Of a DNA stretch of 51,401 bases, positions 8,903-11,155 are shown piece after piece. Made by a program: the position numbers and the translations under genes. The first letter of the stretch is position 1. Each line of letters begins with the position of its first letter. A model generated the notes under the pieces. That model saw nothing but the letters and a program-made list of their open reading frames with translations, was not told the DNA's origin and did not search any database. Source of the stretch: Candidatus Omnitrophota bacterium. GTDB lineage: Bacteria > Omnitrophota > Gorgyraeia > Aquiviventales > Aquiviventaceae. The stretch lies in assembly GCA_016206685.1 (NCBI GenBank), contig JACQRB010000060.1, positions 1-51,401 of the forward strand, written 5' to 3'.

Positions 8903-10170
8903 TGGGACGCTGGATTTAACTGGTCACGGAGAGCATCGGCGAGCTCGCCAATCTGCTCCTCGGTGTGCAGCGCGGTGACGCTGAGCCGCAGCCGGGACGT
9001 TCCTGCCGGGACCGTCGGCGGACGAATGGCAGGGGCCCACACGCCGCGTTCCCACAGGGACGCGGACAAGGCCCGAGCGCGCCTGGCGGATCCGACGACG
9101 ATGGGCGCGATGTGGCTCGGTGCGAAGCGTGGCAGGTCCGTGAGAGAGGCGAGCGTGGCCTGCAACTGTCGGACGCGCTGGGCCAGGCGCGCGCGCGGCG
9201 CCGGATCCTCCTCGACCAGCCGCAGCGCTTCCAGCGCCGCCGCGACGAGCGGCGTGGCCAGCGCCGTGGCGTAGAGGAAGTGCCGGGCGCGGTTCTGAAG
9301 GAAGCGAATGAGGCTCTGGGCCCCGACGACAAATCCGCCTTGCGCGCCGAGGGCTTTGCCCAGCGTGCCCATGTAGATCATGGCCGCATGCGGCACGCCC
9401 GCCTGCTGTGGGCTGCCCCGGCCGCTGCTCCCCAGGACGAACGCCCCGTGGGCATCATCCAGATACAGCAACGCCTCATGCGCGTTGACCACGTCCGCCA
9501 GCTGCGCGAGCGGCGCGCGATCCCCGTCCATGCTGAAGAGGCCTTCGCTGACCACGATGCGCCGGCCCCGCCTCCCCGCGATCGCCCGGCGGGGCAGGCG
9601 CGCCAGCAACCGAGCGAGCTCGGCAACATCATTGTGCGGAAACACCCGCAGGCGCGCGCGGCTGGCACGAGCGGCGTCAATGAGGCTGGCGTGGGCCAGC
9701 CGATCCACCAGGACGACGTCCTCAGGTCCCAGCAGCGCGCCGAGGGTTCCGAGATTCGCCAGATAGCCGCTGGGAAAGACGAGCGCAGACTCCGCCCCAA
9801 AGAACGCCGCGAGCCGCGCTTCCAGCTGCGCGTGCAGCGTGGTTGAGCCGGCCAATAACCGGGAGGCCCGCGCCCCCACGCCCCATCGCTGCGCGGCCTC
9901 GCAGGCGGCCTGGATGACCTGGGGATGCTGGGAGAGGCCCAGGTAGTCGTTGGTGCACCAGCTCACGAGCCACTGGCCGGCGACGCGCACCTTGACTCCC
10001 CGAACCTCCTCGATGGTGGTGAGTGTCCGCAGGAGCTCGCGGTCCCGAAGGCCGGCGAGGTCTTCCTCCGCGTCGGCCAGGAACCGTTGGAGGGGTGGAA
10101 TGATCGGAGAGGATTTAGCGCACGACCATGGGGAGGAATTCGGTGGAGCCAAAGACGCCATAGATGCCAT
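8899..10170 (-). CDS. bioF: 8-amino-7-oxononanoate synthase (PLP-dependent)
   Basis: Alpha-oxoamine synthase pattern: [20 protein letters not shown] and the PLP-lysine motif GTLGKALG. The exact start is uncertain because the ORF overlaps the upstream gene by 56 nt. Confidence 0.85.
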
Positions 10171-11155
10171 GCTCCCGCAACCACACGCCCCGCTTCAGGT
10201 AGCCCAGGGCGGGGCCGATGACGTTCGCCGCCATGGTGGTCTCATCGCCCAGGAGAAAGCGGTGGGTGGCGCGCTTGCCCTCGAAGGTGATCCCGGTCAA
10301 CGTCATCGTCGTCGACACCGGCTTCTTCGCATGGCGCGTGTCCATCACGCCGCCGACCTCGACCTGCTCAGGGGATTGCACGACCCCGACGCGCTGGAGC
10401 AGCACGTCATCGGCGTGCTCCATGTGATGCAGCTCGAGTAACCCGCCGGTCTTCTCCAGAAACGCCTCCACCTCGGCCTCGCTCATCGCCTTGGCGCGCT
10501 CAACCGAATAGCCGGGGACATGGGCGATATCCTCCCGGATGGTCGCCTTGTAGGCCTCCCAGTTGGCGACGCCCACGCCCCACCAGATATCCACGCGCTC
10601 GACCTCAATGAACGATTGCGCGGCCAGCACCGCGGCCGCCGTCAGCAGCCCGGGCGTCGCCCCGCAGCCGGTGAGCACGACGCTGCGCGAGGCCTTGGCC
10701 GCGTCCTCCAGCGCAAACATCTGCTCCACCGCGGCCGTGCGCTTGAGCACATCCACGAACACCGCCCCGTCTGTGGCCTGCACGAACCGCCGGGCCACGC
10801 CGGGGATGAACTCATTGGGCATATTGGGAAGCGTCACCAGCCACGCGTCCACGTCCCCGCCGTGCTCGAGCAGCTCTCCGAGCGGATCCTCGCTGTGGCG
10901 CGCGAGCAGGGCGGTGGCGGTCGCCACGCCGCCGTCGGCATGAGGCCCGGCCGTCTCATGCGCCCGACGCGGATAGCTCAAGACCACATCCCCGCTCCCG
11001 CAAGCCAACGCCTCGCAATCCAACCCGCCGGGATCAACCAGGAGGCCCTTGCTGTCGCAGATCGCCGTCAGCCGAAGCTCGCGCTTCATCCCGATGATGC
11101 GGCACGCCGCCCGGCCCAATCCTCCCGCCCCCAACACCGCCACCTTCATCCTCAT
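10115..11155 (-). CDS. Rossmann-fold oxidoreductase of saccharopine-dehydrogenase-like type; candidate BioU-type replacement for BioA
   Basis: N-terminal MKVAVLGAGGLGRA dinucleotide-binding motif, about 346 aa. First gene of a tight X-bioF-bioD string, with no bioA in the window. The ATG at 11155 overlaps the LacI stop (ATGA); the ATG at 11149 is an alternative. The CDS call is solid. The BioU assignment is inference, which I would rate at about 0.4. Confidence 0.6.
   Translation of the reverse strand: MRMKVAVLGAGGLGRAACRIIGMKRELRLTAICDSKGLLVDPGGLDCEALACGSGDVVLSYPRRAHETAGPHADGGVATATALLARHSEDPLGELLEHGGDVDAWLVTLPNMPNEFIPGVARRFVQATDGAVFVDVLKRTAAVEQMFALEDAAKASRSVVLTGCGATPGLLTAAAVLAAQSFIEVERVDIWWGVGVANWEAYKATIREDIAHVPGYSVERAKAMSEAEVEAFLEKTGGLLELHHMEHADDVLLQRVGVVQSPEQVEVGGVMDTRHAKKPVSTTMTLTGITFEGKRATHRFLLGDETTMAANVIGPALGYLKRGVWLREHGIYGVFGSTEFLPMVVR

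Follow-up and report, generated by a model that had tools for sequence, protein, structure and literature searches.

The window, by which we mean the whole stretch of DNA analyzed (51,401 nucleotides, positions 1 to 51,401 of contig JACQRB010000060.1), comes from the MAG of an uncultured groundwater bacterium of the Omnitrophota (GCA_016206685.1). A string of genes on the minus strand consisted, in order, of a gene for a coiled-coil protein (12183-13106), a lacI-type regulator gene, the gene examined here (X), bioF, bioD and a gene for a second coiled-coil protein (7221-8594), such that the two coiled-coil genes flanked the lacI-bio block, the second of them at its bioD end. The X gene occupied 10115..11155 on the minus strand and encoded 346 amino acids, with an ATG start codon at 11153-11155 and a TAA stop codon at 10115-10117; the protein begins MRMKVAVLGAGGLGRA. 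A GTG at 11173 is a possible alternative start, giving 352 amino acids, but gained no support from the N termini of relatives. Translation of X located a dinucleotide-binding motif, GAGGLG (residues 9 to 14), at 11114..11131 (minus strand), and G9, G11 and G14 of this motif were invariant wherever the N terminus was present in an alignment of 97 family sequences. This GxGxxG motif, together with the beta-alpha-beta unit that opens the structural model, indicated that X is a predicted Rossmann-type NAD(P)-binding protein.

The genes on either side of X were identified from profile matches, and all were on the minus strand. The bioF gene (8-amino-7-oxononanoate synthase; 8899..10170) matched Pfam Aminotran_1_2 and scored 415 bits on TIGR00858, which is just below the cutoff of 426 and far above the score for any other family. 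The bioD gene (dethiobiotin synthase; 8135..8902) scored 147 bits on TIGR00347 against a cutoff of 83. The LacI-family gene (11155..12189, with a likely start at ATG 12168) matched Pfam LacI and Peripla_BP_3. A first-pass annotation had described X, bioF and bioD as a cluster with overlapping stops and starts, and this arrangement was evident on inspection. The only in-frame start codons available to bioF (ATG 10170, ATG 10161 and TTG 10152) lay 38 to 56 nt within the 3' end of X, and bioF and bioD had an ATGA in common at their junction; overlaps of 26 to 50 nt between the bioU and bioF genes were detected in three relatives (L021, L024 and L025). On the upstream side, the stop codon of lacI and the start codon of X shared the sequence TGATG. 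A scan for promoters and terminators gave only consensus-level hints, one being a hairpin resembling a terminator (7163-7184) and the other a promoter-like site ahead of the ROK gene (14405-14433).

Profile searches of NCBIfam and Pfam assigned X to a single family. The NCBIfam model NF047886, '(S)-8-amino-7-oxononanoate synthase BioU,' was covered by X over positions 1 to 323 of 323 (E = 1e-114, 383 bits), and no competing family came close. Searches of Pfam produced only an uninformative, subthreshold match to ELFV_dehydrog at the start of the Rossmann region. The score of 383 bits falls short of the equivalog cutoff of NF047886, which is set at 600 bits. When six BioU representatives were rescored, values of 231 to 435 bits were obtained, all below the cutoff. 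As none of the relatives or representatives checked attained 600 bits, the cutoff looks to have been fitted to a narrow range of sequences that are probably cyanobacterial; it is an annotation threshold and not a biological feature. A phmmer search of the PDB sequences with X returned five matches only, all of them entries for BioU (Slr0355) of Synechocystis sp. PCC 6803 (6IR4, 6K36, 6ITD, 6K37 and 6K38; E = 1e-96, residues 3 to 346). Hence the proposal of the first-pass annotation, that X is a BioU candidate, was supported by full-length matches to both the family model and the characterized enzyme.

Structural modeling gave a similar result. An AF2 model of X, built from a 13-sequence alignment, had a pLDDT of 88.9 and a pTM of 0.86, and the sole disordered stretch (pLDDT under 50) comprised residues 64 to 81, which are an insertion relative to Slr0355. 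In Foldseek searches with this model, the five BioU structures ranked first (TM scores of 0.84 to 0.90, 46 to 47% identity, E values of 1e-42 to 1e-44). The next folds were those of meso-diaminopimelate or D-amino-acid, amine, lysine and carboxyspermidine dehydrogenases, with TM scores of approximately 0.5 to 0.56 and identities of 11 to 17%; the meso-diaminopimelate and D-amino-acid dehydrogenases among them had TM scores no higher than about 0.55 and identities of 14 to 17%. X and Slr0355 thus belong to the same length class, have the same fold and align from end to end, a structural difference between them being the extra, poorly modeled loop of about 20 residues in the Rossmann domain of X. 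The Rossmann fold that had been read from the sequence at the outset was upheld; the nearest folds outside BioU were those of meso-diaminopimelate and D-amino-acid dehydrogenases and not that of saccharopine dehydrogenase proper. The group formed by these enzymes and the native amine dehydrogenases (e.g., 1DAP, 5LOA and 6G1M) resembles X in having an N-terminal Rossmann domain followed by a substrate/dimerization domain and in the presumed type of chemistry, an NAD(P)-dependent reductive amination. Its members differ from BioU in drawing on free ammonia as the donor, in being catalytic and in lacking a sacrificial lysine.

The distribution of the family was examined at several levels. Homologues of X with 70 to 91% identity were found in MAGs labeled Candidatus Omnitrophica or Omnitrophota and were publicly named 'saccharopine dehydrogenase-like oxidoreductase' or had no name. 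Nearly identical DNA was present in groundwater metagenomes, and there was no RNA data set among those listed. When 1.84 billion representatives were searched exhaustively with HMMER, only 12 clusters were recovered at an E value of 1e-30 or better, indicating that the BioU family is compact. Beyond the cyanobacteria, a scan of species genomes detected BioU relatives in the Omnitrophota, Abditibacteriota, Armatimonadota, Candidatus Desantisbacteria and Sumerlaeota and in one MAG labeled Methanosarcinales. A quick maximum-likelihood tree grouped all 46 BioU proteins from cyanobacteria in one clade (support, 100). X fell into an Omnitrophota group within a separate, non-cyanobacterial clade that also contained the Abditibacteriota and Armatimonadota and was sister to the cyanobacterial clade. 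X thus differs from Slr0355 both in clade and in its score relative to the 600-bit cutoff, and since it lies outside the clade of the tested cyanobacterial enzymes, its predicted function is transferred over a sequence divergence of approximately 50%. MAGs labeled 'uncultured Planctomycetales/Planctomycetia' (L021, L023, L030 and L035) carried bioU loci that were identical to or nested among those of the Omnitrophota; two of them correspond to genomes in the window's own family (L021 to G021 and L023 to G001), and the labels, which were assigned by the submitters, look wrong.

Two residues that have been probed in Synechocystis BioU were located in X by alignment with the mutant structures. 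The identities of these residues were taken from the PDB titles and chains, 6ITD and 6K37 being 'BioU (K124A)' and 6K38 being 'BioU (H233A).' The deposited chains differ from the wild type at two places, with Ala for the Lys of DALKRT in 6ITD and 6K37 and Ala for the His of MEHADD in 6K38. The first-pass annotation had named the donor lysine as a feature to be checked, and Lys138 of X, in the motif DVLKRT (codon at 10742..10744, minus strand), aligned with the Ala position of the two K124A structures and hence with the amine-donor Lys124. His247, in the motif MEHADD (codon at 10415..10417, minus strand), corresponded to His233. Each of these two residues was retained in 96 of the 97 aligned family members. 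X and Slr0355 also had in common an active-site block made up of LPNxPN, DxLKRT, GCGATPGLLT and MEHADD. The exceptions to the retention of Lys and His came from two very divergent BioU-like clusters, one in which Asp replaces the donor Lys (P0127) and one in which Tyr replaces His233 (P0132); these proteins may be paralogues that function differently or that do not sacrifice themselves.

These observations bear on whether X would act once or many times. As a BioU-like dehydrogenase, X could instead produce DAPA in a catalytic manner with a free amine donor such as ammonia or an amino acid, Lys138 having only a transient or structural role, and X would then not be a suicide enzyme in this clade. 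The multiturnover nature of the amine, meso-diaminopimelate and D-amino-acid dehydrogenases, which are its nearest other folds, is consistent with such an activity, as is the separation of the X clade from the sole enzyme that has been tested. However, the near-complete retention of the donor lysine and the histidine extends across both clades, the active-site block is shared with Slr0355 and no clade-specific sequence feature points to another chemistry. We therefore consider a catalytic, multiturnover X to be improbable and favor a BioU that uses its own lysine.

The gene context of bioU differed between the two clades. The first-pass annotation had described cyanobacterial bioU as being encoded with other bio genes, and this detail did not hold, as tblastn searches (E = 1e-8) of the 3 kb flanking bioU on each side detected neither bioF nor bioD in any of 46 cyanobacterial loci (L045-L099). 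In the non-cyanobacterial loci, bioU generally came immediately before bioF and bioD. This adjacency was noted for loci of the Armatimonadota, Abditibacteriota and Omnitrophota and for the one MAG labeled Methanosarcinales, and in L033 the bioB gene joined the cluster ahead of bioU. These comparisons indicated that clustering with bio genes is a trait of non-cyanobacterial bioU. X appears to be translationally coupled to bioF and bioD by overlap, unlike bioU in the 46 cyanobacterial loci. The MAG labeled Methanosarcinales carried a bioF / bioU-bioD locus, for which a binning error or a transfer is possible.

The presence of bioA was examined in the genome of origin, in its relatives and across the phylum. 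BioA (adenosylmethionine-8-amino-7-oxononanoate aminotransferase; TIGR00508) resembles X in the step performed, from KAPA to DAPA, and in the company of bioF and bioD, but it has an unrelated fold and differs from BioU in being a PLP-dependent, multiturnover enzyme with SAM as the amine donor. The assembly that contains the window (G000) comprises 0.97 Mb in 65 contigs and is 63% complete. Neither the window nor the remainder of this 63% complete assembly yielded a bioA gene, and the only bioA-like gene was HemL, which scored 502 bits on the glutamate-1-semialdehyde (GSA)-aminomutase model versus 134 bits on the bioA model. A bioB gene was present, split over two contig ends (G000:C1:11317-11814 and G000:C17:3-545; L002 and L003). 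The two parts covered model positions 141 to 307 on one contig and 2 to 182 on the other, which looks like an assembly break and not a broken gene. The genome therefore had bioF, bioD and bioB with no detected bioA in a 63% complete assembly, as do genomes with a Slr0355-type BioU. Searches of the same assembly for birA, accB, bioY and the pimelate-arm genes bioW and bioC gave nothing above the cutoff, and these blanks say little at 63% completeness. By the same token, and because birA and accB also went undetected, the absence of bioA from this genome proves little by itself, and the argument for a missing bioA rests on the relatives.

Among 41 related genomes, BioU was detected in 22 and bioA, above its cutoff, in 8, with no genome having both. 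The BioU proteins of these 22 relatives either scored approximately 337 to 398 bits or were fragments at contig ends, and a twenty-third genome (G012) had the N terminus of bioU at a contig end. Seven BioU-bearing relatives were at least 92% complete, and all of these carried the bioU-bioF-bioD string without bioA. The first-pass annotation's report of a cluster lacking bioA thus held, with HemL as the best match in the genome and no bioA in any BioU-bearing relative. In an even sample of 200 genomes from the phylum, each at least 85% complete, bioA was present in 124 and BioU in 3, again without overlap, indicating that within the phylum BioU replaces BioA in a restricted clade. Overall, BioU and bioA occurred together in none of approximately 240 Omnitrophota genomes. 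Some BioU-bearing relatives had matches of 215 to 275 bits to the bioA model, and a divergent bioA was considered for these. All three that were checked (G015, G019 and G037) proved to be transaminases of the ArgD type, and two scored above the argD cutoff; bioA-bearing genomes have this gene as well, and a divergent bioA was rejected. Separately, bioA matches in the Omnitrophota often lay in open frames of 680 to 900 amino acids (L016, corresponding to G027:C4 and C13; G028:C4; and several phylum genomes). In L016 and L018, bioD matches adjoined bioA on the same strand, pointing to bioD-bioA fusions in part of the phylum.

The possibility that X has no connection with biotin, being for instance another amino-acid or polyamine dehydrogenase, with the true bioA lying in the unassembled 37% of the genome, draws on the incompleteness of an assembly from which the essential biotin genes birA and accB are also missing, on the public naming of homologues as 'saccharopine dehydrogenase-like oxidoreductase' and on the score of X below the equivalog cutoff, but it is made very unlikely by the seven relatives of at least 92% completeness that have the bio string and no bioA, by the zero co-occurrence in the roughly 240 genomes and by the operon linkage to bioF, bioD and sometimes bioB across several phyla.

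Taken together, the analyses make it very likely that X serves this Omnitrophota bacterium as its BioU and performs the BioA step in assembly of the biotin ring. This assignment is based on homology and fold, on both probed residues being kept, on the gene neighborhood and on the mutual exclusion of BioU and bioA. The reaction that X would carry out, its restriction to one turnover and its choice of cofactor are inferred from the Synechocystis enzyme. For that enzyme, three articles (PMC12915131, PMC12704756 and PMC7133116) describe a first step in which 8-amino-7-oxononanoate is ligated with NAD(P)H to the epsilon-amine of Lys124, a carboxylation of the conjugate and an NAD(P)+-dependent release of DAN-carbamic acid in which the lysine is consumed, allowing one turnover per protein. 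The role of K124 as the amine donor is stated in two of these (PMC12915131 and PMC12704756).

By analogy, a pathway can be proposed in which BioF would condense a pimeloyl thioester with alanine to give 8-amino-7-oxononanoate (KAPA). X, as BioU, would then bond its own Lys138, through the epsilon-amine, to the C7 keto group of KAPA in a reduction that consumes NAD(P)H, and the diamine, still bound to the protein, would be carboxylated. NAD(P)+ would be used to cut the C-N bond of the lysine, releasing the 7,8-diaminononanoate carbamic acid with the nitrogen remaining on the product. As Lys138 would be destroyed on release, each X molecule is proposed to work only once. BioD would subsequently close the ureido ring with ATP, and BioB, encoded elsewhere in the genome, would insert sulfur. 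The overlapping bioU-bioF-bioD frames may serve to couple synthesis of the sacrificial protein to that of its partner enzymes.

The LacI-family gene next to the bio genes raised the question of regulation. Known regulators of biotin genes are BirA, BioR (GntR type), BioQ (TetR type) and BioL. In the relatives examined, an orthologous lacI was located directly upstream of bioU throughout the taxonomic order of the window, giving the arrangement lacI-bioU-bioF-bioD, and a second Omnitrophota lineage (L033, L037 and L038; L033:905-5790) had the arrangement secretin-lacI-bioB-bioU-bioF-bioD. Close kin of both lineages that use bioA kept the lacI gene with no bio genes adjoining it (among them L108:4700-5701). 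The nearest LacI relative of the second lineage, in a bioA-bearing genome, was located in the order secretin-secretin-lacI followed by unrelated genes. The pairing of the coiled-coil gene with lacI was also seen in bioA-bearing relatives (L109 and L110), and bioU, bioF and bioD therefore look like an insertion that separates lacI from the second coiled-coil gene. A tree of the LacI proteins followed taxonomy, and a single clade of bio-linked LacI proteins, which had been considered, was not recovered. Searches for an operator near the operon and upstream of bioB, using cre/LacI-type consensus sequences and palindromes, found nothing convincing. It is unlikely that the LacI-family gene encodes a previously unknown kind of biotin-operon regulator. 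Regulation of sugar use would be a simpler role, given the ROK and GH94 genes immediately upstream and the tight packing of the genome.

The BioU class of enzymes has reportedly been known since 2020, through the work of Sakaki et al., and X is a known enzyme type in a lineage where databases leave BioU unnamed; the value of the finding lies in annotation and in what may be concluded about vitamin dependence. Among the papers searched, none reported BioU in the Omnitrophota, and a survey of the phylum gives no more than 'present but not universal' for biotin synthesis (PMC10066038). The cutoff of the NCBI BioU model misses proteins of the X type and so leaves an annotation gap. The self-sacrificing route is probably not confined to cyanobacteria and appears to extend to several uncultured phyla, in which it is linked in operons to bioF and bioD, and this linkage provides stronger context evidence than is available in the cyanobacteria themselves. 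By analogy with the Synechocystis enzyme, this uncultured groundwater Omnitrophota bacterium can probably build biotin rings without BioA. Recognition of BioU would probably turn an apparent gap in this groundwater order of Omnitrophota into a complete ring-assembly pathway and so change how dependent these very small cells look on hosts or neighbors for biotin.
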